Part shown: piece by piece, positions 5,465-63,328 of the stretch
Layout of the letters: the number at the start of each line of letters is the position of its first letter
Numbering within the stretch: position 1 is the first letter of the stretch
NCBI GenBank assembly: GCA_050287105.1
Contig: JBNKBG010000001.1
Coordinates: 1,546 to 65,545 of the forward strand
Length of the DNA stretch: 64,000 bases
DNA from: Thiohalomonadaceae bacterium
Lineage (GTDB): Bacteria; Pseudomonadota; Gammaproteobacteria; Thiohalomonadales; Thiohalomonadaceae
Direction: 5' to 3'
The notes under the pieces: generated by a model
The model's database searches: none
The model's input: only the letters and a program-made list of their open reading frames with translations
What the model was told of the DNA's origin: nothing
Position numbers and translations under genes: made by a program

Positions 5465-6313
5465 GTGACCACCGCACTAACTATCGAAACCATCCGCGAG
5501 CAGGCACGCATCGCACTTGCTGAGGATATCGGCAAGGGCGATATCACTGGCGCCCTGATCGCCAAGTCGGCCGTTGCCACGGCCAGGGTGATCTGCCGGG
5601 AAAACGCGGTGATCTGTGGCTGTGAATGGTTTAACCAGGTATTTGCCCTGCTCGATACGTCGATACATATCGATTGGCATGTGGAAGATGGTTACCGGGT
5701 CGAACCCGGAAAAATGCTCTGCTCCCTGACCGGCCCCGCCAGGGCGCTGTTAAGTGGTGAAAGAACCGCACTCAACTTCCTGCAAACCCTCTCCGGTACC
5801 GCTACGCGGGCGGCGCAGTATGTGGCCGCAGTGGAAGGTACCGAGGTAAAGGTGCTCGATACCCGCAAAACCCTGCCGGGACTACGACTGGCGCAGAAAT
5901 ATGCGGTGAAGTGTGGTGGCGGGCAAAATCACCGTATCGGCCTGTTCGACGGGGTGCTGATAAAGGAGAACCACATCGCCGCCGCTGGCTCTATCGCCAA
6001 TGCGGTGGGGTGGGCACGCCAAACGACACCGCCAGGTATGCAGGTTGAGGTCGAAGTGGAGAATATGCAGGAGATCGAGGAGGCGCTGGTCGCAGGTGCC
6101 GATATTCTGCTACTGGACAATATGACCCCCGGCCAGCTGCGTGAGGCGGTAGACCGGGTCAAGGGGCGCGCCCTGCTGGAGGCATCTGGCGGGATAACAT
6201 TAGGAAATATAAGAGAAATTGCTGAAACCGGGGTCGACTTTATCTCCGTAGGGGAGATGACCAAGAATGTGGCGGCCATCGACCTCTCAATGCGTTTTAG
6301 CAGCCCGAGCTGA
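5465..6313 (+). CDS. nadC: nicotinate-nucleotide diphosphorylase (carboxylating)
   Basis: Motifs [38 protein letters not shown]. Start set at GTG 5465; the track ORF opens at 5441 and would overlap the FKBP gene. Confidence 0.9.
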
Positions 6314-6442
6314 ACCTCCCACGCGCCACATCAGGACTTGAACGGGTTTCCATTCTCAAAGAATACCAGTAGAAATAAAACGTAAAATAACATAAGGTTA
6401 GCTAGCGGTTCCGCTTACAATAAAACCTTTGGTATCAAGGAT

Positions 6443-8158
6443 ATGGCAACGACCAAGCTCAATGTGAACCTCAGCGGTCTGGCGCGAAAGCTGATCAACG
6501 ATGGTTTGCTCAGCGAGGAGGATGCGCTGCAGGCCACCGATGAGGCCGCCAAGCAGAAAATCCCCTTCGTCACATACGTTGTCGGCAAGAACAAGATTGG
6601 CGCTCGCGACCTGGCCATGGCCGCCTCGCAGGAGTTTGGCGTACCGGTTTTTGATCTGGATGCGATGGAGCTGGATAGCGACGTTACCAAGATGGTCAGC
6701 GAAAAGCTGGTCCGGCAACATCACGCACTCCCCTTATTCAAACGCGGCAACCGCATGTTTGTCGCGGTTTCTGACCCAACCAATCTGGTTGCGCTCGACG
6801 AAATCCGCTTCCATGTCAGTGCCCATACCGAGGCGGTACTGGTTGAGGAGAACAAGCTCAGCCACATGATCGACCGGGCGATGGAGGCACATGACACCTC
6901 CATGTCCGATTTCGGCGACTCCTCTCTGGATGACCTGGATATTACTGCCGAAGATGAAGATAAGGATAAGGATACCGGCAATGACATGGAAATCGACGAC
7001 GCGCCGGTCGTCCGTTTCGTCAACAAAATTCTGCTCGATGCGATCAACAAGGGCGCATCGGATATCCACTTTGAACCCTACGAAAAACGCTACCGTGTGC
7101 GTTTCCGTCAGGACGGCATGTTGTATGAAATGGCCAACCCGCCTATTCAGCTATCTGGCAAAATATCAGCACGTATCAAGGTTATGTCACGACTGGATAT
7201 CTCGGAGAAACGTGTTCCGCAGGATGGCCGAATCAAGTTGACCCTCTCCAAAAACAAGGCCATCGACTTTCGTGTCAGTACCTGCCCGACGCTGTTTGGT
7301 GAGAAGATCGTACTGCGTATTCTCGATCCCTCCAGCGCCAAGCTCGGTATCGATGCCCTGGGCTACGAGCCTGAGCAGAAAGATCTCTATATGGAAAACC
7401 TGGCCAAGCCTTATGGCATGATTTTGGTTACTGGTCCGACCGGTTCGGGTAAAACTGTTTCGCTCTACACCGGAATAAATATTCTCAATACCTCCAGCGT
7501 CAATATTTCCACGGCGGAAGACCCGGCAGAGATTAACCTTGAGGGGATTAACCAGGTTAACGTGAACCCCAAAGTGGGTCTGACCTTCGCTGCGGCGCTT
7601 AAGGCGTTCCTGCGCCAGGATCCAGACATCATCATGGTGGGTGAGATTCGAGACCTTGAGACGGCTGAAATTGCCATCAAGGCAGCACAAACCGGTCACA
7701 TGGTTATGTCTACCCTGCACACCAACGACGCACCACAAACTATTGCTCGTTTGATGAATATAGGTGTACCACCCTATAACATCGCCTCAGCATTAAACCT
7801 GATCATTGCCCAACGTCTTGCACGGCGCCTGTGTAATCAGTGCAAAAAGATCGAAGAGGTCCCCAAAGAAGCTCTGCTTGAAGAAGGTTTTAAGGCCGAA
7901 GAAATCCCAAAACTCAAACTATTCAAGGCAGTTGGCTGCGATCAATGCACCGATGGCTATAAGGGACGAGTTGGTATCTATCAGGTACTTCCTATCTCTG
8001 AAGAGATGGGGAAATTGATCATGAAAGGTGCTTCAGCCTATGAGATGGCCGATCAGGCACAGAAAGAGGGTATTCCGGATCTGCGCGCTTCAGCTCTAAA
8101 GAAGGTAAAGGAAGGCGTAACCAGCCTCGAAGAAATTAACCGAGTGACCAAGGATTAA
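6443..8158 (+). CDS. pilB: type IV pilus assembly ATPase PilB
   Basis: 571 aa. Has a GSPII N-terminal domain, Walker A GPTGSGKT, and a tetracysteine CNQC...CDQC motif. Confidence 0.95.
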   Translation: MATTKLNVNLSGLARKLINDGLLSEEDALQATDEAAKQKIPFVTYVVGKNKIGARDLAMAASQEFGVPVFDLDAMELDSDVTKMVSEKLVRQHHALPLFKRGNRMFVAVSDPTNLVALDEIRFHVSAHTEAVLVEENKLSHMIDRAMEAHDTSMSDFGDSSLDDLDITAEDEDKDKDTGNDMEIDDAPVVRFVNKILLDAINKGASDIHFEPYEKRYRVRFRQDGMLYEMANPPIQLSGKISARIKVMSRLDISEKRVPQDGRIKLTLSKNKAIDFRVSTCPTLFGEKIVLRILDPSSAKLGIDALGYEPEQKDLYMENLAKPYGMILVTGPTGSGKTVSLYTGINILNTSSVNISTAEDPAEINLEGINQVNVNPKVGLTFAAALKAFLRQDPDIIMVGEIRDLETAEIAIKAAQTGHMVMSTLHTNDAPQTIARLMNIGVPPYNIASALNLIIAQRLARRLCNQCKKIEEVPKEALLEEGFKAEEIPKLKLFKAVGCDQCTDGYKGRVGIYQVLPISEEMGKLIMKGASAYEMADQAQKEGIPDLRASALKKVKEGVTSLEEINRVTKD

Positions 8159-51820: not shown

Positions 51821-52663
51821 TTAGTTCCAATCGAAATCATTACCATAACCATACTTAGTCAGAGACTCACCAGCAGTCTCTTTAAAAGCTTTGATATGCT
51901 CAGGCTTAAATAATTCTCTCCAGCCTCCGCTTTCCCCCCTTCTGAAAGTTAAAGTTTTTGTCGAGTAAATATTTTCACAAATATAATCAAGTTCTTTTTC
52001 TGTTAGGGCAATCTCAAGATGTTCGGCAATTGACATAACACATGTTCGCTGCATCTCACGGGTTCCACCACCCCTTTCCCCAATCAGTTCTTCAAAACGA
52101 ACAACGAGTGAACACTCCTCTTCGAACCACTCCTCAAATCTCAAAAGCGCATCGGAAAGCGGTGAAACAATACCATCAACTCCCTGTATAATCGCCATTA
52201 GACGCGCATCATCATCAGGAAGTGAACTAAAGTAATTATGAGCATGGTGGGTTAAATCTATTGATGTCACGTATTTTACATAAGAAACGGCAATGTCCCT
52301 AGGATCCCTTATCATGAACAGCACTTTAACTCCCTGTTCCTTGACGAGTGATAGCACTTCAGGATGAGAAGGAAGATGTGCATTCCAGAACTGGCCTTTT
52401 TTAATATTACGTATACGATGAGACGTCAAACTGTCTATTTCGTCCCAACCCCTCAACGTTCTTTTCCCCACATTTCTTAGAAGAGGAAATCTTTCCAGAG
52501 TACGCTCAAGCATATTGGTTCCAGCCTTGGGAAAGCTATTCATCAACACCCTAGGCCCCACAAATCTGCCTTTAATTGCGCTAACGCTCATTCCACGCAA
52601 AGTAACAGCGATCTTCTTGCGCCCGAAATATAAATATCTATCTAATAAATTCTGCTGTTTCAT
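51821..52663 (-). CDS. sulfotransferase family protein
   Basis: 280 aa with a PKAGTNML (5'-PSB-like) and an IRDPRDIAVS (3'-PB-like) PAPS-binding motif. AT-rich flanks. Confidence 0.65.
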   Translation of the reverse strand: MKQQNLLDRYLYFGRKKIAVTLRGMSVSAIKGRFVGPRVLMNSFPKAGTNMLERTLERFPLLRNVGKRTLRGWDEIDSLTSHRIRNIKKGQFWNAHLPSHPEVLSLVKEQGVKVLFMIRDPRDIAVSYVKYVTSIDLTHHAHNYFSSLPDDDARLMAIIQGVDGIVSPLSDALLRFEEWFEEECSLVVRFEELIGERGGGTREMQRTCVMSIAEHLEIALTEKELDYICENIYSTKTLTFRRGESGGWRELFKPEHIKAFKETAGESLTKYGYGNDFDWN

Positions 52664-52775: not shown

Positions 52776-52839
52776 AAAGAGAACGGGGACAGACCAAAGA
52801 GAACGGGGACAAAGAGAACGGGGACAGACCACGGTTTTC
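52776..52839. repeat. REP-like repeat cluster at the 3' side of rayT
   Basis: aaagagaacggggacagacc at 52776-52795, a truncated copy at 52796-52810, a full copy at 52811-52830. cggggacagaccacggttttc (52819-52839) is the exact reverse complement of a 21-mer in both right-hand copies. Confidence 0.8.
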
Positions 52840-53533
52840 AGTATTCTTCACGCCTTGGTCTCCCAGATTTTCCAGGCGTCACACGCCTGCCAAGCATCGT
52901 CTCCACCTGCTCCGCAAAGCGGCCATCCCCTAACACAAAGTTACCATTAGTTGATTTCCTAATTTCATCAATAACACCAGGTTCCATTTGGTAACGAAAC
53001 AACTCACGATAAGCGACCTGCCTCTCAATATCGCTTTCCCCTAGAGCCGTATACAACGGATGAGGACTTAGCAACTTATTACCATCCATCCCTTGTCCGT
53101 TTGCACGATAACTTGACCAAGGGTAGTCCGCAGGATGATCAACCATACCGGCACGAACTGGATTCAGTTCAATGTAACGATGGCAGGTGAGCAGGTATGT
53201 CTCATCTTGAATCAAACAGGAGCGGTAGCGTCCCTCCCATAAGGTTCCACTACGCCGATAGGTGCGATTGACGTATTGCACATACCGCTGACCTAGTTTC
53301 TTCATCATCTGCCCTACTGATTCAGCCTTATCAGGCGTTAGCAGCATATGCACATGATTAGTCATTAAGACATAGGAATGAATCGCACATCCTGTTTCCT
53401 CAGCATATTTCCCTAGCCACTCCAGATAGAACTGGTAGTCCTGGTCGGCATAGAAACAGGCCTGACGATTGTTTCCTCTCTGAATGATATGTAGCGGGAT
53501 ATTAGGCAGCGCTACCCTTGGACGCCTTGGCAT
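52838..53533 (-). mobile_element. REP-associated tyrosine transposase (RayT / IS200-like Y1 transposase)
   Basis: 231 aa: HIIQRGNNRQACF, VLMTNHVHMLLTP (HUH), YIELNPVRAGMV..P.DYPWSSY (catalytic Y region). Flanked by inverted REP-like repeats. Confidence 0.85.
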
Positions 53534-53576: not shown

Positions 53577-53660
53577 TGTCAGGCACCTGGAAAACCGTGG
53601 TCTGTCCCCGGTTATTTTAATGTCAGGCACCTGGAAAACCGTGGTCTGTCCCCGGTTATT
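53577..53660. repeat. two direct copies (44-nt period) of a 40-nt REP-like element at the 5' side of rayT
   Basis: tgtcaggcacctggaaaaccgtggtctgtccccggttatt at 53577-53616 and 53621-53660. It contains the inverted 21-mer of the left cluster. Confidence 0.85.
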
Positions 53661-53874
53661 TCGCAAGATCCCCGCTTCGTTACTGCCGACCCTGGCCAGA
53701 TTGTTTGCGGTGTCGCTGGAGGAGCTGACGGGGATGGAGAAGATGCCGACCAAGCGCGGCCCGGCCTCTATCCTGCAACGGCAGATCGAGCAAATCGGGA
53801 TGATGCCAAGGCCAAAACAGAAGTTCATTACGGAGATGCTGGAGGCGCTGATTAAACAGCAACAGGCTTCTTAG
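53661..53874 (+). pseudogene. 5'-truncated XRE-family HTH regulator remnant
   Basis: The translation ...LPTLARLFAVSLEELTG..KRGPASILQRQIEQIGMMPRPKQKFITEMLEALIKQ looks like the last HTH helix plus C-terminal tail of small XRE-type proteins. The N-terminal helices are missing, and the frame is entered straight from the REP copy. Confidence 0.5.
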
Positions 53875-53947: not shown

Positions 53948-54199
53948 ATGGCTAAGCGCGATTGTACGGGTAAAACACGCCCAGGAAAAATCCCCACCCA
54001 TAAATGGCTTACCGTCGGTAGGTTCTATTACTACTACACTCCCACCAAAGACGCTCCACCCGGCACGTCCAATCACTCGGTCATGGTGCCTGCGATTAAC
54101 ATCAAGGGCCGCTGGCTGGATGAGGCTGGCTTTGCCATTGGGGCCAAGGTCAGGGTGAGGGTCTGTCAGGGGTGTTTGGTGATGACGGTTGAGGAGTGA
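53948..54199 (+). CDS. symE: SymE family type I toxin (AbrB/SpoVT-fold)
   Basis: 83 aa. LTVGR...VPAINIKGRWLDEAGFAIGAKVRVRVCQGCLVMT aligns with E. coli SymE (LTVSY...[34 protein letters not shown]). AGGAG RBS upstream. Confidence 0.8.
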   Translation: MAKRDCTGKTRPGKIPTHKWLTVGRFYYYYTPTKDAPPGTSNHSVMVPAINIKGRWLDEAGFAIGAKVRVRVCQGCLVMTVEE

Positions 54200-54270: not shown

Positions 54271-54666
54271 CTAATCCCAGTAGCTTTTCTTCCTTGGGAA
54301 AAACTCCATCGCACCGACATTGCCGGAGAAGGTGAATTTGCCATGAATTCCATCTTCTTGAATGGAGCCAGCAAAGCTACCACCGTATAACGTGTCAGCA
54401 ATAGCAAATCTAATATTCCCCTTCTCAATAGTTGGATGCACAACAATCAAATTACCTGCACCACCCTCGCATATCTGGAGCGTCCCAACGTATCCTTTTT
54501 TCGTAACAATGATCCGCAACTCAACTCCTGACAAATCTCCCGACTCATCGTTATAAGCAATGCTGGAAAACGTTCCTGTATATTTAACTCCATCTGCTAA
54601 TGCACAGTTAGCAACGAGTGCAATCAGCAAAACAAACAACAAATATATTTTCGTGTTTTTCATCAT
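54271..54666 (-). CDS. exported small protein, candidate immunity for the orphan M15-like toxin
   Basis: Signal peptide MMKNTKIYLLFVLLIALVANCALA. The ATG overlaps the toxin TGA (ATGATGA). No recognisable family. Confidence 0.55.
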   Translation of the reverse strand: MMKNTKIYLLFVLLIALVANCALADGVKYTGTFSSIAYNDESGDLSGVELRIIVTKKGYVGTLQICEGGAGNLIVVHPTIEKGNIRFAIADTLYGGSFAGSIQEDGIHGKFTFSGNVGAMEFFPRKKSYWD

Positions 54667-55202
54667 TTGCACCCGCAATCTGCTGCGCCACTCGCGGCAT
54701 CTTTCTGAGCATCTGCAATATACTTCGACCGATTACCTCGACCACCAGGAACTTCATTGTAGAAGTGAACAGGGTCTGGAGTGCTGAAATTCCCACCCCA
54801 GCTTATTCCCGCAGCCGCCGCATTAGCCGCAACGGTTGCTTGCTGCGCTTCACTAAACGTTCTCATGCTAACGTCAAAGGCATACCCTGCCTCATGCAAG
54901 CTAGTACCGGCTTGCGCTGGTGTAGTTGCATTCGGATTATTCTGTAATTGCGCCTGATATGCCGTAGTACGGAAACCTTCCGTGAACGTAACATCCGTGC
55001 CAGTAGCATGGTTCTTTGCAATGAAGTCCATAACCTTTGGATAGAAACTGTCATCCATATAAGTATCGCCAAGGCCAGGAAGGTTAGCTTTGCACAACTT
55101 CAATCCTAGAGGATCAATAAAGTTGATCGGGTCATTGAAGACGTAGGAGTAGAAATTCAGACCACCGTTAAACCTGATCGGGTCCTTTGCGGTAAACCCC
55201 AC
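54663..55202 (-). CDS. orphan Rhs C-terminal cassette: Rhs core remnant plus LAS/peptidase M15 (VanY-like) toxin domain
   Basis: aa 1-34 DPIRFNGGLNFYSYVFNDPINFIDPLGL matches the Rhs core end. Then GFRTTAYQAQL, SLHEAGYAFD and WGG..STPDPVHF, the GxRxxxxQ / SxHxxGxAxD / DxxH motifs of M15 zinc peptidases. Only a GTG start with no SD, so it may be silent. Confidence 0.7.
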   Translation of the reverse strand: MGFTAKDPIRFNGGLNFYSYVFNDPINFIDPLGLKLCKANLPGLGDTYMDDSFYPKVMDFIAKNHATGTDVTFTEGFRTTAYQAQLQNNPNATTPAQAGTSLHEAGYAFDVSMRTFSEAQQATVAANAAAAGISWGGNFSTPDPVHFYNEVPGGRGNRSKYIADAQKDAASGAADCGCK

Positions 55203-55207
55203 TAGTT

Positions 55208-55750
55208 TTAATCATCAAACTCCATGAGGCATTTTTTATACGATTTATTCCAACTTAACTTCTCTTCAATTACATGCTTATATTTATCCATAAACTCCGT
55301 TTTAAGTTTCACCTCATCTCCTTTTGAGTCAGCAAGACTAAAGCCAGAGTCGATTGCCTTACATGTTGTTTCAATTAAGAACTGTCGATTCCGCAGGACA
55401 TCGAGAATTTCACTATGTTTTCTCTCAAAAATATCCAGAAACGTCTCGCCAACATGTTCGGTTATGTCTGAACTTGCACTTTTGTATGCAGCAAACACTA
55501 TGAGCAGATAAACTCTCAAATCCGCATCAGATGAGTCACTCGCTTTCATTCGCTGCCAATAGCTATTATACAAGTCACCCCACTCTCTATAGCGTTCAAG
55601 CTTTGCTTTAGCATCGCCTCCCTTAGAACTAACGTTCAGAAGTTTATCTACAATTATGTATGCTTCCTTTTCTGTCAGCACATCACTTGCGCAAGCAGAC
55701 AGCGAAACGAGTGATAAGCCTATCATCATCAAGAATTGACATATCTTCAT
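55208..55750 (-). CDS. lipoprotein, candidate immunity protein for the main Rhs C-terminal toxin
   Basis: MKICQFLMMIGLSLVSLSAC lipobox. AAGGTGAG RBS 7 nt before ATG 55750. Directly downstream of the Rhs stop. About 32% GC in a hand-counted line. No recognisable family. Confidence 0.6.
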   Translation of the reverse strand: MKICQFLMMIGLSLVSLSACASDVLTEKEAYIIVDKLLNVSSKGGDAKAKLERYREWGDLYNSYWQRMKASDSSDADLRVYLLIVFAAYKSASSDITEHVGETFLDIFERKHSEILDVLRNRQFLIETTCKAIDSGFSLADSKGDEVKLKTEFMDKYKHVIEEKLSWNKSYKKCLMEFDD

Positions 55751-55771
55751 GAACGTTCTCACCTTAGCAAC

Positions 55772-58700
55772 TCACTGTTTAGTAACAGTGACACCTTCTT
55801 CACGCCCAAAATTGCTGAAGAAAGAGTCACATTGGTCTGGCTTAATTGTAAAGCAGGCATCAGAACCAGTATTCGATTGACTGTACCCACAATGAACAAA
55901 CACACTTGAAGCAGTGGAATTGGGCGAGCCATCGTTTGTTGGCAAGTCATCAGGGAAGAATATGCCTGGGCGCGGGTTTCCGTTAGCATCCGGTGTCGCT
56001 CTAAACGTATTGATCCCCTCATATGTGCCAGGAGCAACAGTGTTTTCATTGGCAGGATCGTTCGGGACAGTACTACCTTCCCCAGTAAATACAACATTGC
56101 CATTTGAATCTGTCACCGTAACAGTGGAATCGTATGTACCAGAACCACTACCAGGAGTGAATACCACTGTAGATTGCAGCCCAGAAGGATCAATTCCATT
56201 GATCGGGTCGCTAAATGCGTAAGCGTAGAGGTTCGTTTGGCCTCCCCCGAATTTAATTGGATCATCTGCGGTCCACCTTCCCGTCACCGCATCATAATCC
56301 CTCGCCCCAAACCGTGTCAGTTGGGTGTGCTGGTCATAGATGCCGCCCGAAAACCCAAACGGCTGGAATCCGGGATTGGTGTCGTTGGTGACATTCCCGA
56401 ATTCATCATAGTCCATTCGCTGCACGATTTCGCCTGTGCTGCTGTTGACGATGAGCCTCGGACTGCCGAGGTGGTCGCTGATGATGCGATAGGTGATGCC
56501 ACCCTTGACCATGTAGCTCGGGACGTTGCCTTTTTCAGCGTAGGTGAATCTTGCTGTGACGTTCCCTGCCCCATCCAATTCGGCGATGGGATTGAGCTGG
56601 TCGCGGTAGAGGAAGCCCTGTACCAGTACACCGTCGACTTTTTTACCGATTCGCCGGTTCTGCCCATCGATGAGATAGTCGATGGTCATTCCACCCGGTA
56701 GAGTGACCTGCATCAGGTTACCCAGCAGGTCGTAGTGGTAGTTGGTGGTTAACCCCGCTTCGGTTTTGCTCAGTAACTCACCATTAGTGGTGTAGCTATA
56801 ACTGGCTCCACCATAGGTCAACAACCGATCCTGCTCATCATAGGTGGCACCGGTGCCGTTGTGGTCGATGCGGTTACCATTAAGGTCGTAGGTGTAAGTG
56901 GAAACAATGACGCCATCCTTACTCACCGTCTGCAATCTACCCGCCAGGTCGTAACCGTAGTCGTAGATGGTAGTCACGCCTTCTATGTTTTCGGTCTTTT
57001 GGGTGATACGGCCCAGTTTGTCTCGCTGGTATTGGGTGTCCAGCACGGTGGTGCCACTAATTTGCGCGGTTTCACCTGTCGCCTCACCGAAGCCGTTGTA
57101 GGTACAGCTGGTGGTGAGATTGCTCAGGGTGGTACCGGTAAGCAGGCCGTTTACAAGACTGCGATCCAGAGTCAGATCACCCGCTTGTGATAACAGACCA
57201 TCATCATCGTAACCATAGCTGACAGCGCTACCGTTGACGCTGCGGCTGGTGATCCAGAAGTTGTTGTCGTATGTCTGGCTGACGTTGCCGCTGATGTCGC
57301 CCGCCCATGTGGTGGAGAGGGGCAGGAAGCCATCGTAACTATAAGTGAGGGTGTTGCCATCAGGCGCGGTCAGTGTACTCAGTTTGCCCGTGGTGGCGTT
57401 GTAGTCATAGCCGTACTGGCCTCGCGGAATAGTAAGTGTGGCAAGCTTGCCCCCACTGTTGTAGCCGAGGGTGACTGTCTGGCCGTCCGGACGCAGGACT
57501 TTGGTCAATTGCTTGTCGAGGTTGTAGCTGTATTGAGTGATTGTTTCCACGCCGCTCAGGTTAGGTGGTGTGTAGTCAGTCTCTTTATCAACAGTGTTGT
57601 AACTGAAAACGTGGGCGCTTTTCCCCGGCGGGGTGAGGCTGGTGAGGTTGCCGTTGGCATCGTAGCCATATTGGATAATACGACCATCAGGCAGTTTCTG
57701 TTCGGTTACCCGACCCACAGCATCATTGGTAAAGATAACATTTCGACCCATCGGATCGGTGATACTCCCGAGATAACCTTGGTTGTCGTAATCGAAAGTG
57801 AGAGAACGGACAGTAGCACCGATTCCTGTTGTGATACCGGTTAGGCGGCCACGAGTATCGTAATTGTAATTTACCGCATCAAGATCAAATCTCTGATCTA
57901 AAACCGGCCGACCTTTATCGTTCAGCTCGACATGACTCTGGCGACCGGCAGGAGTCGTTGCCGTCCAGGTGTGTGTGGCAGCGTCGTAAGCGGTGGAGGA
58001 AGTCCTACCGTTGACCGTAGTAGTTTCCGATAGCGTGGTCAAATCGCTGGCGTCGGTCAGTGAAGCCGTGCGATCAGCGCTGAGAGAGAGGGTTATGCCT
58101 GCCTGGGTAGTGATGGTGGAAGCATTCACGTAGGGCGCCCCCATGCCGTCACGCGGGTCGGGTACCCTGTGCAAAGTACGCACAGTGCCATCTGCAGCGG
58201 TAGCTGTTTCTGCAATCTCGTTGTCTGTGGTCGTGATATGGCGGGTAGCCACAGTACCGTCCGGGGAAATTGAGGTTCTTAATATTTCCGTTTCGTTCAG
58301 TCGCTCGACGCCAAAGCGTGAGATGCGGCCTTCCCCACTGGTCATGCTCCCTTCGAAACCGTTGTCTGTCTGGGTGCGAGCGAGTATCCAGCCACCGCCA
58401 TCGGGCTGAGACTCACTAGTCAAACGACCGAGGGTATCGTACCCATAAATGTATTCTGCCCCTGCCGGTTTCTTGAAAGATGTCATGAGACCACCCGATG
58501 TGTATCCCATTTGGTACGTTTCACCAACAGGATTGGCGACTGAGGCAAGGTAGCCATTAGGATCCAGTGTAACTATGGTACGTTGTCCATCAGGAGCAGT
58601 GATGGCAGTAGGTTTACCTGTGATATCGCGTTCGATGGTGATGGTGTTGCCGTCGCCATCTTCGAAACCGATGAGATTCCCGTCGCCGTCATAATTAAAC

Positions 58701-61700
58701 GTCTGGCGTACCGTGCCGGTTACGCTATCAAGAGTACGGAGGTGTCGACCCGAAACATTGAATACGTAGTATTCGCTGTGATCAGCAGCAGGAACCATGA
58801 ATTCGCCGGTCGACAATTCGATGCCCGGAGGAGCTACCCGGCGGATACGGAAGTTGTAGGTGTCCGCAATGTAGAGACTGCCGTCGGGGCCGAGGGCTAC
58901 ATCGTGCGGCCGGTATATATGCGCCAGGATGGCCGGGCTACCGTCACCGCCATAACCGGCAACACCGATGCCAGCTACAGTGGTGATGATACCTTCTGGG
59001 CTCACCTGGCGAATACGGTGGCCTCTATTCTCTGCAATGTAGAGATTGCCATCTGGGCTGAAGGCGACGCCAGACGGCCCGTTGAGCAATGCCTGTGTAG
59101 CCGGACCATCATCACTGCCATAACCACCACCGGCCACGGTGGTGATAATACCATCCGAGCTCACCCGGCGGATTCGGCCGCTGTAATAATCCGCAATGTA
59201 GAGGCTACCGTCGGGGCTGAGTGCCAGACCGTTCGGGTAGCGGAACTGCGCCAGTGTAGCCAGACCACCGTCGCCACCATGACCCCAAGCACCGCTACCG
59301 GCCACAGTGGTGATGATGCCGTCCGGACTCACCCGACGGACGCGATTGTTAAGAGTATCCGAAATATAGAGGCTACCGTCGGGTCCAAGGGCAACACCAC
59401 CTGGGCCGGAGAGTTGTGCCTGGGTGGCTGGGCCGCCGTCGCCGCTAAAACCTGAAACACCGGTGCCAACCACAGTAGTGATGATGCCGTCTGCCCCCAC
59501 CATGCGGACACTATGACTACCGTAGTCCGCTATGTAGAAGCTACCGTCAGAGCCGATGGTGATATCGGACGGGGAGACGAGCTGCGCCTGAGTGGCCAAA
59601 CCGCCGTCACCGCTATATCCACTAGTGCCTGTACCGGCCACAGTGCTAATGATGCCGTTCGGGCTCACCCGGCGGATACTGGGATAGGTGGTGTCCGCAA
59701 TGTAGAGGCTGCCGTCGGGGCCGAGAGCGATACCGTGCGGGGTAGTTAACCGTGCCTGGGCGGCCGGACCGCCGTCGCCACTATAACCGACAACACCTGT
59801 GCCAGCCACGGTGGTAATGATATTGCCCTGAGCGGCTGCACGGCGCCACGTTCCGTCGCCCCGGTAGAGGATGGACTCAGCTGTGCCGTAAGTGTGCTGC
59901 GCATCCAGGCTCCATCTACCCATTTCGGCGGCACTCGCTATATTGCCGCTTACAGCAACTGTGTGCTGCCGGGATAAAACCACTTCCGCAGTCGCCCGGT
60001 TCCCGCCAATAGCCACGCCGGTACCGATCCGAGCAAAAGAAGAGGAAAACCCGCTAGGTTTACTATAGATGGCACTATAGACAAAGTGCAGGCTAGAGGT
60101 AAGGTTGACATAGCCCATCACGGACCGGCCAAACCCATCCTTTCCGTCCCACTGGAATGTGGTGTGCAAATTCGGCGCAGGAACAAAGGTCTGGTGGTGA
60201 ATCTGCCCGGCCACACGGATTTCGAGTTCTATTCGTTTCAGTGAACTCGGTACGGAAGAACCACTTATCGAAATATCGACTGTTCTACCCGCGACATAAC
60301 CCGGCACACGATCAGAGCGATAGTTGAGAGTATAGGATGTACCTGTGATTGGAATCGACTCACCCAGCACCTGATTCTCCGCTTCGATGATACAGCCGGT
60401 GCATTCTGTTGGATCGAATGGCTTGTCTTTATTTTTCGTCTTTGCCAAATCTACAAGCGGCGGTACCGCATTATTCGGCGGTACAAACGGCCAATTGTAA
60501 TCCCAAGGTGTAAAGTGGGTGATCGGTGCGCGCCACAGGCTCTTACCTGGCTGGTAGAGTTGTACCAGTTGCGCACGCTCTGCGTCGGTAATTCCAAGGG
60601 CGGCCAGTGCAGCCACATCAGCGGGTACACCACTGCCATCGACATCAATATCTGCCATACCGTTGCTGACAGAAAGTATTTCGATCACCCGACCGTTATC
60701 CGACGGAATCCAGGTAGCTTTATCGCGGTCGTACCAGCCCACTGGCACGATCCCTCCAACAGGGAAACCGATGAAGTTGTCGACGTAGACGGGTACCGGC
60801 TGGTTGAATTGCACTGTCCTGGCACCAGCATTGATTGCTTCGTCCACACTCAGTTCCACCGCGTAAGTATAACCGCTGCTCGGCGGCAATTTGCCCGGCA
60901 TGGTATCGGGGCCTTCCGTACCGACGGTGTATTCGGTGGCACGGACGTTCATTGAAGTGAGTGGTTGTGTGCTGCCGTCTGGCATAACCATGCTAGCCTG
61001 GAGCCCCTGAGGAAAAAGAATGGTCGCCTGGCGACTACCGTCGGCGTCTGTCATGACGCTGCCCTGCGCCACCTGGAATGGTGTGCTGGAGTTAAGGTCG
61101 ATGGTGGCGACGTTTGTGTCTAGCGGAATCATCACCACGTCCGACAGCCAAGCGTAGTCCTTCCACGGCGCATTCACTTGCCGTTGTACCGGCAGGTAGC
61201 CTTCCTTTATGTAGTTGACGGTGAGGATGCCTCCGCCATTTACCGCCATATCGAACATGCCGTCGGTACGAGTACCGGACCAGCCGAATTCACTGTGATT
61301 GAGAATGCTGATGGTCACACCTTTCAATGGTGCGCCGCCACGGGTAGTGACCTTGCCGCGCAGTATCGCGACACGACGCTCCTTAATGGTGTTTGGTGGT
61401 ACATCAAACTGAATCGGATGGCTACCACTGTAGAGAAAGGCAGTGGAGTCGTATAGTTTAGTGGCCACAGTCGGATCGTTAGGTGGTGCGACATTGGCTG
61501 GGTCGACCGGCACGTACCCGTTATTGGGTATCGGTGTCACATTGCCGGTAGAGATCGTTACATCTTCTACAGCGGTGTTACCTGCACCGTCACGCACAGT
61601 GATAATCAGATCATCGCCTGGGCTCGTAGCCAATTGCGCGCTAAAACTACCGTCCGCAGCAACCTGCACCGTCACCGATTCTCCGGTGGACGTATTGGTA

Positions 61701-63328
61701 ATGGTGATCCAGCTACCCGGTTCAGCACTACCTGGCGCACCAGTGATGATCGCGCTACCTGCTTCGATGACGATCGTGATCAAATCACCGTTTACAGGTT
61801 GCGGAGCGATGGTGTCGAGGGTACCGCTGAGGGCATAGGTGGTACTGTTACCCGCCAGATCGGTGGCAATGATATCGAAGCTGTTGCTACCCTCAGTCAA
61901 TGCAGCGCTGTGACTGAAATAATTCTGCGCATTGAGGAGCAGTGCAGTCCCGTTAATCGTGGCTTTGACTGTCTCGTTAATCGCACCGTTAATAGTGAGC
62001 GGAGTCTGGTTGGTAATGAAATCGTTGGCCGGAGTATCGACAGTAATGACTGGAGGAATAGTATCGACGGTGAAGGTAACTTCAGTTTTGTCCGAGGTGT
62101 TACCGGCGAAGTCTTCGACATGAGCCGCCAGAACGGCACCACCATCGGAAAGAGGGCTGGCCAGTGTGCATTGGGCTGTGGCCTCTGTCGTATCACATGT
62201 CGCTGCGACTTCGGCACCATTGATATATAGTTTCAGGCTATCACCATCCACCCCCATACCATTGTCGCTATAACTGACCTTGATGGTGGGCAGGTTGGTA
62301 TTGAGGTAGCTGCCATCCAGCGGCAGGGTAATAGTGAGTGTGGGAGCAGTTGTGTCATAGTAGATCGCCAGGGCGCGAATAGCTTTACTTCGATTCGCGT
62401 CACCAATGGCATGGCGTATTTGCCCAGATGAATCTATGTGGATTAATTGTTTGTTGTTTGCCAACCAGGCGCTACCGTCGGCCTTGTCGGCTACCAATGC
62501 GACGCTCCTACCTCCAAAATGGGCTCCACGATAAGGATCGATATCTACTTGTAATAGACCACTACCATCGGTCTTGAGCAGGTTCTTCTCGCCTACAGCC
62601 CAGACTGCTCCGCTGTAGTCCGAGGCCAGAAAATCAATTGGTCTAATGCCTTGCTGAAACTTTAAAGTGCCTGTTTCATCAACACGCATCAATTCCTTCT
62701 CGGTAGCGAACCACAGTTCCTGCAAATATTCGTCAAATGAAATTGCCTTGATCTTGTCCTTTGTATTGAGAATATTCTGCAGGACTAGTGTTGCGCCCTG
62801 ATCGTCAACAAGATACAACCATTTTTCATCTGCCAACCAAACTTGAGAGGACAGTGGAGCATAGGTGAGCCCGGTGATATTTTCCTTTGCTTGAACATAC
62901 GCCAGCAGGTCCCCTGAAGAGGAATAGTGTGTCAATTGATGCTCATAGGCCAGCCAGATAGAGCCGTCGAGAGGCTCTATCAGCATCTCCGTATTACCCG
63001 CTCCTGGGCATCCATTAATACAGGTAATTGGATAGTTACCTATCACGGTCCCATCAAAGGCATAGGCAGTAAGTTGTTTCTTGCCGTAAGTCCAGACTAC
63101 GCCACGTTTTTCATCCAGAGCGAGTTCTTTTACATTCACTGTACTGCCGATCTCGAACAAAATTGTGCCGTCGGTGGTAGCTAGTTTGAGGATACCATCC
63201 GTCTCCGCTACCCACAGGGCACCGACATAATCGTTATTGAGGTTGGTTATCGCTTCAGCAGTGAAGGTGGTAAATAAAAGGGCGAGGGTAGAGAAAACAA
63301 TGGCGCGAAGAATGGTGGCGTGTAGCAC
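55772..63328 (-). CDS. 2518-aa secreted RHS/YD-repeat polymorphic toxin with teneurin-like architecture
   Basis: GTG start with AAGGGAG RBS. aa 1-26 Sec signal (..FTAEA). aa 36-310 seven W-containing ~42-aa repeats. aa 325-593 three Ig-like modules. aa 651-718 carboxypeptidase-regulatory/TTR-like ([19 protein letters not shown]). aa 1168-1500 six NHL repeats ([26 protein letters not shown]). aa 1530-2350 YD repeats. aa 2341-2384 Rhs core end [44 protein letters not shown]. aa 2385-2518 variable CT. Confidence 0.92.
58829..59827 (-). repeat. six intragenic tandem repeats (~160-170 nt) encoding the NHL blades
   Basis: Recurrent plus-strand motif gtagag[ga]ct[ag]ccgtcgggg at about 58871, 59041 (diverged), 59201, 59361, 59531 (diverged) and 59701. 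Confidence 0.8.

Follow-up and report, generated by a model that had tools for sequence, protein, structure and literature searches.

L,D-Peptidase polymorphic toxins linked to RHS proteins have already been predicted (Zhang, de Souza, Anantharaman, Iyer & Aravind 2012; PMC3482391). A second described system, Tlde1/Tae5 (DUF2778, PF10908 Tlde1_dom), is a YkuD-related effector of the Salmonella Typhimurium type VI secretion system (T6SS) that exerts its toxicity in the periplasm. H121 and C131 are essential to it, and its immunity protein bears a Sec signal; the His-Cys spacing of Tlde1 is shorter than that of YkuD, some of its members are fused to Rhs, and its activity combines L,D-carboxypeptidase with D-amino-acid exchange (PMC9638812; bioRxiv 10.1101/2020.02.18.954545). 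The motif of canonical L,D-transpeptidases (LDTs) is quoted as HXX14-17[S/T]HGCh (PMC9638812). Bacterial teneurin-like proteins (TLPs), in turn, have been described as toxin carriers with downstream immunity genes, the functions given for their C-termini being OMP-like, ART, HINT, nuclease, protease, and peptidase (Raoelijaona et al. 2026, PMC13018210). Here, we describe a locus in a 64,000-nucleotide stretch of DNA from a Thiohalomonadaceae bacterium (assembly GCA_050287105.1, contig JBNKBG010000001.1, positions 1,546 to 65,545; hereafter the window, whose own numbering is used throughout), in which a 2518-residue Rhs protein ends in a 134-residue tip and is followed by the gene for a lipoprotein. 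As judged from family profiles and a structural model, the tip is a compact, divergent YkuD-fold domain. We consider it probable that, within a teneurin-like Rhs polymorphic toxin, this domain is the exchangeable toxic part and acts on periplasmic peptidoglycan, with the lipoprotein as its antidote.

The Rhs protein is the translation of an open reading frame (ORF) at 55772..63328 on the minus strand, and its parts are as follows.

56177..63328, minus strand: carrier, residues 1-2384, a teneurin-like Rhs/YD protein (translation and Pfam).
56177..56410, minus strand: Rhs-associated core, residues ~2307-2384, ending in the DPSGL autoproteolysis/demarcation motif (NCBIfam TIGR03696).
55775..56176, minus strand: C-terminal toxin domain, Q2385-Q2518, 134 residues, with a predicted divergent YkuD / L,D-transpeptidase-like fold (family profile, AlphaFold2, Foldseek).
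55892..55894, minus strand: codon of His2479 (tip residue 95), the predicted catalytic base, invariant in 39/39 tips and aligned with the catalytic His of LdtMt2.
55853..55855, minus strand: codon of Cys2492 (tip residue 108), the predicted nucleophile in G-S-D-A-C-F-T-I, invariant in 39/39 tips and aligned with the Cys of LdtMt2.

The boundary between carrier and tip is sharp. TIGR03696 matches the carrier over profile positions 1-76 of 76 (E=3.1e-19) and stops at L2384, the last residue of ...IDPSGL; the tip is therefore Q2385-Q2518, which agrees with the 134 residues after DPSGL delimited in the original prediction, a model's reading of the sequence alone. A YD shell and a core that ends in DPxGL ahead of a variable C-terminal domain give the protein the layout of an Rhs/YD polymorphic toxin, and TTR, FN-plug, and NHL domains upstream of the shell give it that of the teneurin superfold. 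The Pfam matches comprise TEN_NHL (1e-44), TEN_YD-shell (4e-42), RHS_repeat (2.5e-37), TTR_TEN1-4 (5e-24), and Big_13, with TTR_TEN1-4 and TEN_NHL exceeding their cut-offs and FN-plug_TEN1-4 (E=1e-5, 26.1 bits) falling slightly under its own of 27.8; Ig-like domains and six NHL repeats make up the upstream part. The N-terminus was judged by eye to be a Sec/SPI-type signal peptide with cleavage before ITN, and a Pfam scan of the carrier found no PAAR domain. Residues ~27-330 (window ~62340-63250, minus strand) match no Pfam or NCBIfam family; they repeat the pattern '...W(L/A/V)A..(K/N).L..(V/I/T)D..G', which resembles beta-propeller blades. These N-terminal ~300 residues might be the 'TIP' region described for bacterial teneurin-like proteins.

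The original prediction held that the tip could not be assigned with confidence to any named toxin family. In direct searches, the tip alone has no Pfam or NCBIfam match at E<=1 and none in PADLOC, its best match among PDB sequences is at chance level (E=4), and neither tblastn against plasmids nor a word-indexed search of 5.8 billion proteins gave anything useful. Relatives came solely from an exhaustive HMMER (phmmer) scan of 1.84 billion representative proteins at E<=1e-3, which returned 44 proteins, 39 of them kept as genuine. The five that were dropped (P0008, P0029, P0031, P0037, and P0043) are Ig-like or repeat proteins whose multi-stretch matches fall in the N-terminal part of the tip, which is rich in beta-strands. 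In most of the 39 relatives the tip stands directly after an Rhs ...DPxGL junction, and the remainder are short orphan fragments. With about 40 representatives in 1.84 billion proteins, the family is rare, and it has a clear signature, H-x-G-x(6)-G-S-x-[GA]-C-x-T-[IV]-x-P.

Only three columns of the 39-tip alignment (A1) are invariant, H95, G97, and C108, which correspond to H2479, G2481, and C2492 of the full-length protein; G104, T110, and P113 are conserved in at least 90% of the sequences, S105 is present in 35/39, and Gly or Ala occupies position 107 in 37/39. The window tip, which includes APGTYEGI, has 12 residues between His2479 and Cys2492; the His and the Cys of the signature that had been read from it, a His followed some 12 residues later by S-x-A-C-[hydrophobic]-T-I, are among the three invariant residues. 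A conserved His and a conserved Cys, the latter in an [S/T]-x-G-C-hydrophobic context, are what is expected of YkuD-type enzymes; the Ala that precedes Cys in the window tip also occurs in 7/39 members and is therefore a tolerated family variant. A second pair of cysteines, Cys96 and Cys116 (C2480 and C2500 in the full-length protein; codons 55889-55891 and 55829-55831), is present as a pair in 24 sequences and absent as a pair in 15, with neither ever found alone (n=39; Fisher p=4e-11, uncorrected for phylogeny), and members that lack it usually have Trp at tip position 116. This covariation suggests an optional structural disulfide beside the active site.

The fold assignment is based on three comparisons: profile matches to PDB sequences, Pfam matches of single members, and a structure search of PDB. 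In the first, the family profile built from the alignment retrieved M. tuberculosis LdtMt2 as the best PDB sequence (E=2.3e-4), and 26/26 of the listed PDB matches were L,D-transpeptidases or ErfK/YkuD proteins; in the LdtMt2 alignment the family His falls on the His of ...FVHS... and G-S-x-G-C-l-T falls on T-S-H-G-C-L-N. In the second, 16/39 members, scanned singly, matched Pfam YkuD at E<=1 (best 2.6e-10), alongside weak matches of 4/39 members to Tlde1_dom (best E=0.0027) and of 1/39 to DUF5675. In the third, an AlphaFold2 model of the tip computed from the same alignment (mean pLDDT 96.5, pTM 0.90) was searched with Foldseek against PDB, and all of the top 50 structures were L,D-transpeptidases or YkuD proteins (probability 0.84-1.00, TMq 0.36-0.52), including LdtMt1/2/5, LDTs of M. 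smegmatis and M. abscessus, B. subtilis YkuD, E. faecium Ldtfm, Bd1075, and the G. oxydans 1,3-LDT. Among viral predicted structures (BFVD), the best matches were DUF5675 proteins, an endolysin, and tail-lysozyme/polyvalent proteins, with TMq up to 0.72. The predicted model thus has the YkuD-type beta-sandwich, and the comparison of profiles and structures that had been proposed for the tip retrieved the fold that had been guessed for it. The idea of a divergent YkuD-like, L,D-transpeptidase/carboxypeptidase-like tip with an exported lipoprotein is accordingly supported by profile, Pfam, model, invariant residues, and exported partners alike, all of them computed predictions. The alternative that was offered as a fallback, a new toxin fold, is refuted, since both the profile and the model match L,D-transpeptidases and the top 50 PDB structures contain nothing else.

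Several observations pull the other way. The window tip itself has no direct Pfam or NCBIfam match even at E<=1, and in its closest subclade PF03734 gave a single match (E=0.009; 17 bits vs a gathering cut-off of 23.4). Structural similarity to PDB entries is moderate (TMq 0.36-0.52, E ~1e-3). When the closest subclade was compared by hhalign with a separate group of Rhs-YkuD tips, the probability was 17.5% and only the His...Cys segment aligned, and the family compared with a Tlde1_dom Rhs tip reached a probability of 1.5%. The canonical motif HXX14-17[S/T]HGCh does not describe the tip, where the spacing is H-x12-C and the motif reads S-D-A-C-F-T: Asp takes the place of the motif His, a position that varies in the family, and the residue two past Cys, usually Arg or Asn, is a near-invariant Thr. 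Finally, Sec export of a teneurin-like carrier does not explain how the outer membrane of a target cell would be crossed. The low hhalign score, together with the lack of a Pfam match for the tip, also led us to reject membership in Tlde1/DUF2778, to which the original prediction had likened it.

The partner of the tip is encoded immediately downstream.

55208..55750 (including the stop codon), minus strand: immunity candidate, 180-residue lipoprotein read from ATG, with lipobox LSAC and its Cys20 codon at 55691-55693.

This ORF starts either 9 nucleotides (GTG 55762) or 21 nucleotides (ATG 55750) after the Rhs stop, the spacing that had been read from the sequence along with the lipobox; the ATG has AAGGTGA in front of it and agrees with a 180-residue database gene call. 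The N-terminus reads MKICQFLMMIGLSLVSLSAC and then ASD, and with L-S-A-C as the lipobox the residue at +2 is Ala, so the protein is probably anchored in the outer membrane and faces the periplasm. Base composition sets the gene apart, with GC contents of 38.9% for the immunity gene (60-nucleotide windows 23-50%), 46.3% for the tip, 61.2% for the NHL region, and 54.8% for the whole window; the 32% vs 58% of the original prediction were a fair hand count. No Pfam or PADLOC family matches the lipoprotein at E<=1, its NCBIfam match is at chance level (SpoIID, E=0.12), and at Pfam E<=1 no sequence link was found to the known immunity families of L,D-peptidase toxins (Imm16/DUF2750, Imm57; Tldi1/DUF2195). 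The structure search that had been proposed for it yielded an AlphaFold2 model in which the mature part is all-alpha (pLDDT 78.9), and no fold match in PDB was found with this model (best E=0.72). Homologues number only four in 5.8 billion proteins, and in every case with a visible neighborhood a homologous tip directly precedes the gene.

The pairing of tip and lipoprotein recurs in three other loci; a single-protein scan of genome contigs returned just one close locus. The gene order of the window recurs in L004. In L002, a partial Rhs, the tip is clearly homologous, with identity, on visual comparison, at the great majority of positions; the immunity protein is 56% identical to the window lipoprotein and has the lipobox MSAC. 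Two contigs of metagenome-assembled genomes (MAGs) of Thiohalomonadaceae, L001 and L003, carry the cassette in orphan form, preceded by a different Rhs tip and by ParDE genes: the tip of this orphan (in the 273-residue ORF P0001) has 99% amino acid identity to the window tip, and its lipoprotein gene is truncated (124-128 residues). The main tip of these two loci differs from that of the window and has a 202-residue partner with no signal peptide, the ParD/ParE pair standing before the orphan cassette. At the DNA level, window 56282-55170 is 92.7% identical to L001 7468-8581 (L003 counterpart 5584-6801) over a stretch that spans ~35 codons before DPSGL, the tip, the immunity gene, and the start of the next orphan, vs 81% between the adjoining Rhs core and the L001 main gene. 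Such a cassette, better conserved than its core, indicates classic Rhs tip displacement, or cassette exchange.

These loci also bear on the idea that the tip is a degenerate, inactive YkuD-like domain, a non-toxic passenger to which the lipoprotein is unrelated. The departures from the canonical motif (Gly to Ala, His to Asp) and the truncated lipoprotein gene of the orphan cassette in the related MAG could be read in this way; we nevertheless regard it as extremely improbable, given that His, Gly, and Cys are invariant over 39 diverged sequences, that the Ala variant is shared by seven members, that the pairing is kept in L002 down to 56% identity of the immunity protein, and that conservation is higher in the cassette than in the Rhs core.

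More distant members retain an exported partner of changing identity. The genes downstream of the tip in L005 (336 residues), L006 (162 residues), and L007 (164 residues, with LNAC) are unrelated in sequence, and every product begins with a lipobox or signal peptide. The partners in L005 and L006 have in common the motif C-x-x-x-N-F-[DE]-x-L-Y-x-x-N/D-Y-x-x-F-W-x-I-L, which suggests a second immunity family. L005 1-4821 is a metagenomic Rhs array whose main tip is Pfam Tlde1_dom with a 133-residue signal-peptide protein as its partner, and behind it stands P0050, an orphan that is a member of the present family and is paired with the 336-residue exported protein; both types of YkuD-related toxin are therefore interchangeable on one scaffold. 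In L007 49-2129, a short orphan of the family (P0044) and its lipoprotein partner are followed by a 360-residue Rhs-junction protein that repeats the N-terminal 40 residues of the orphan and ends in a different YkuD/Tlde1-like tip (…IAIHSGRGNPAHMTNGCIRT…).

Orphan modules are found in the window as well as in L001 and L003. Here, the lipoprotein gene is followed by an orphan tip of another kind and its own candidate partner.

54663..55202, minus strand: orphan Rhs tip, 179 residues, comprising the last ~33 core residues (…DPINFIDPLGL) and a VanY/Peptidase_M15-type (LAS metallopeptidase) domain (Pfam, TIGR03696).
54271..54678, minus strand: candidate immunity gene of the orphan tip, 135 residues, with a signal peptide ending …LIALVANCALA before DG (translation); it overlaps the orphan ORF.

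The orphan begins 6 nucleotides downstream of the lipoprotein gene and matches Pfam VanY (1.3e-6) and Peptidase_M15_4 (4.9e-6), with TIGR03696 (1.8e-9) over its residues 2-34; it also has a weak match to the L,D-endopeptidase MepK (E=0.02). Its 135-residue partner has no family match in Pfam, NCBIfam, or PADLOC, and the order of the two genes is found again in L004. Window 54271-55202 is hence predicted to be a second cell-wall toxin/immunity pair in the same array.

Action in the periplasm is proposed because the cognate partner is a lipoprotein, because the partners of distant members are exported, because the Cys pair covaries, and because the M15 orphan has an exported partner; all immunity candidates beside family members carry signal peptides or lipoboxes. 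It is conceivable that a YkuD-like Cys-His scaffold has been re-used away from peptidoglycan, as a thiol peptidase or acyltransferase whose substrate is a protein or lipid of the envelope or the cytoplasm. The diverged motif, a subclade that Pfam does not recognize, and the same scaffold in the related MAG, with a tip whose immunity protein is signal-less, would suit such a use. However, four unrelated immunity candidates beside family members are exported (4/4), all characterised members of the fold act on peptidoglycan stems (PMC9638812), and the covariation of the Cys pair hints at oxidising surroundings, so we rate this possibility as very unlikely. What the signal-less partner of the main tip in the related MAG does imply is that the carrier is not restricted to periplasmic payloads; one carrier locus can apparently swap periplasm-acting and cytoplasm-acting tips.

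Under the peptidoglycan reading, the tip would be made as the C-terminus of the 2518-residue protein, cut off by the Rhs core at DPSGL and enclosed by the YD shell, as Rhs/TLP biology suggests (PMC13018210), and carrier and tip would be exported through the Sec pathway, for which the signal peptide is present. In the periplasm of a neighbor, which the tip would have to reach across the outer membrane, Cys2492, activated by His2479, is expected to attack the L,D (mDAP3-D-Ala4) bond of peptidoglycan stems (mDAP, meso-diaminopimelic acid) and, following LDT chemistry, to form an acyl-enzyme with the mDAP3 carbonyl of the stem tetrapeptide. Analogy with Tlde1 makes L,D-carboxypeptidase and/or D-amino-acid exchange the most likely activity; usable tetrapeptide stems would then be depleted and cross-linking deranged, and swelling and lysis may result. 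The producer would be protected by the downstream lipoprotein, which we infer to bind and block the tip.

A domain of the same fold, acting in the same compartment, might also catalyze another reaction, as an L,D-endopeptidase on 3-3 cross-links, a DpaA/LdtF-like amidase releasing Braun lipoprotein, or a transpeptidase making aberrant cross-links. The surroundings of the active site differ from those of classical LDTs and Tlde1 (S-D-A-C-F-T vs [ST]-H-G-C-h-[RN]), the nearest structural neighbors are wall-degrading phage modules (DUF5675, endolysin, and tail-lysin), cross-link hydrolysis was proposed by Zhang et al. for RHS L,D-peptidase toxins (PMC3482391), and the orphan in the same array belongs to the M15 peptidases and weakly matches MepK. 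Set against this, the sole experimentally characterised interbacterial toxin of the YkuD type, Tlde1, is a carboxypeptidase/exchange enzyme (PMC9638812), and none of the computed evidence separates the bond specificities; we therefore hold a different reaction to be unlikely, though well ahead of a target other than peptidoglycan. With the same reserve, we offer the speculation that the tip represents a third, self-standing branch of YkuD-fold interbacterial toxins beside Tlde1 and classical LDTs, structurally nearest to the phage DUF5675 lysin modules, marked by the family signature and an optional disulfide, with a bond specificity other than that of Tlde1, and delivered into the periplasm of a neighbor by a Sec-exported teneurin-like shell without a T6SS; 3-3 cross-links or the Lpp-peptidoglycan link would be its possible targets. 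If true, this doubtful proposal would provide a handle on the delivery route of bacterial teneurins.

Beyond the two toxin/immunity pairs, the island, which lies between hisC and a degS-like protease/NIF3/petABC, contains the following genes.

53948-54199, plus strand: SymE type I toxin family, 83 residues (PF08845, E=1.8e-15).
53620-53874, plus strand: 84-residue ORF preceding the SymE-type ORF, with no family match, in the same low-GC island.
52838-53533, minus strand: IS200-like Y1 transposase, possibly RAYT-type (PF01797, 1.2e-15).
51821-52663, minus strand: sulfotransferase-domain gene in ~40% GC DNA.

The transposase and sulfotransferase genes, which separate the Rhs array from the gene for the degS-like protease, mark the far end of the island, and no flanking tRNA gene was found. 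No T6SS genes are present among the neighbors looked at (~46.8-64 kb, genes farther off in the window not being individually annotated), which are hisC, the degS-like gene, NIF3, and petABC; because the carrier has a Sec signal and no PAAR domain, and because its neighbors include no T6SS genes (no association with PAAR, VgrG, or Hcp), the T6SS framing in which the original prediction had set the tip does not apply.

Compared with the toxins of Zhang et al., the locus is of the same general kind: an RHS-repeat protein ends in a domain with a predicted L,D-peptidase (YkuD) thiol-peptidase beta fold, an immunity gene lies next to it, and peptidoglycan is the predicted target (PMC3482391). It differs from them in that the subclade of the window is not recognised by Pfam YkuD, in its teneurin-like carrier with a Sec signal, and in a lipoprotein without a link to Imm16/DUF2750 or Imm57, which are cited for those toxins. 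With Tlde1, the tip shares a compact, single-domain, YkuD-related build, a His-Cys spacing shorter than that of classical LDTs, and an exported immunity protein with a signal peptide next to the toxin, although this protein shows no relation to Tldi1/DUF2195 (Pfam, E<=1). Unlike Tlde1, the tip has no PF10908 match, its spacing is H-x12-C vs H-x9-C (H121/C131), no capping-subdomain insert is evident in it, and its carrier has no PAAR; the Tlde1a structures (7UMA and others) are absent from its Foldseek PDB top 50. Classical LDTs (PF03734; LdtMt2, B. subtilis YkuD, and E. faecium Ldtfm) provide the best profile and PDB structure matches, with His and Cys aligned. They are housekeeping enzymes with Ig-like, LysM, and PG-binding domains, whereas the tip has no accessory domains, a shorter loop, S-D-A-C-F-T, and a toxin-plus-immunity context. 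Phage DUF5675 (PF18925) is likewise a compact, stand-alone YkuD-like module and shows the top structural similarity to the tip (TMq 0.53-0.72, probability 1.0, predicted structures only), but at 11-16% identity, and in phage lysis or entry proteins rather than toxin-immunity cassettes. Overall, the tip is closer to classical YkuD and phage DUF5675 than to Tlde1/DUF2778.

The tip introduces no new principle, the concept having been set by Tlde1 and by L,D-peptidase toxins borne on Rhs proteins; it is a sequence-divergent, previously unannotated addition to the already predicted Rhs-borne L,D-peptidase toxins. A tip that annotation libraries had left blank is now given a predicted fold, catalytic residues, and a likely compartment, and, being small, modelled with confidence, and probably stabilised by a disulfide, this L,D-peptidase variant could be of use for studies of peptidoglycan stem-peptide chemistry. 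As regards the carrier, the agreement with TLPs is close: like the proteins described by Raoelijaona et al. (PMC13018210), it has the superfold of TTR, FN-plug, NHL, and YD shell, a Sec signal, and a C-terminal domain of ~15 kDa that is polymorphic, and an immunity gene comes directly after it. Neither 'transpeptidase' nor 'YkuD' appears as a word in the main text of that paper or in the supplements searched, and 'peptidoglycan' is likewise absent from its main text. Since no such payload is listed there, a TLP toxin that is predicted to be directed at the cell wall, with lipoprotein immunity, extends the repertoire of these carriers.

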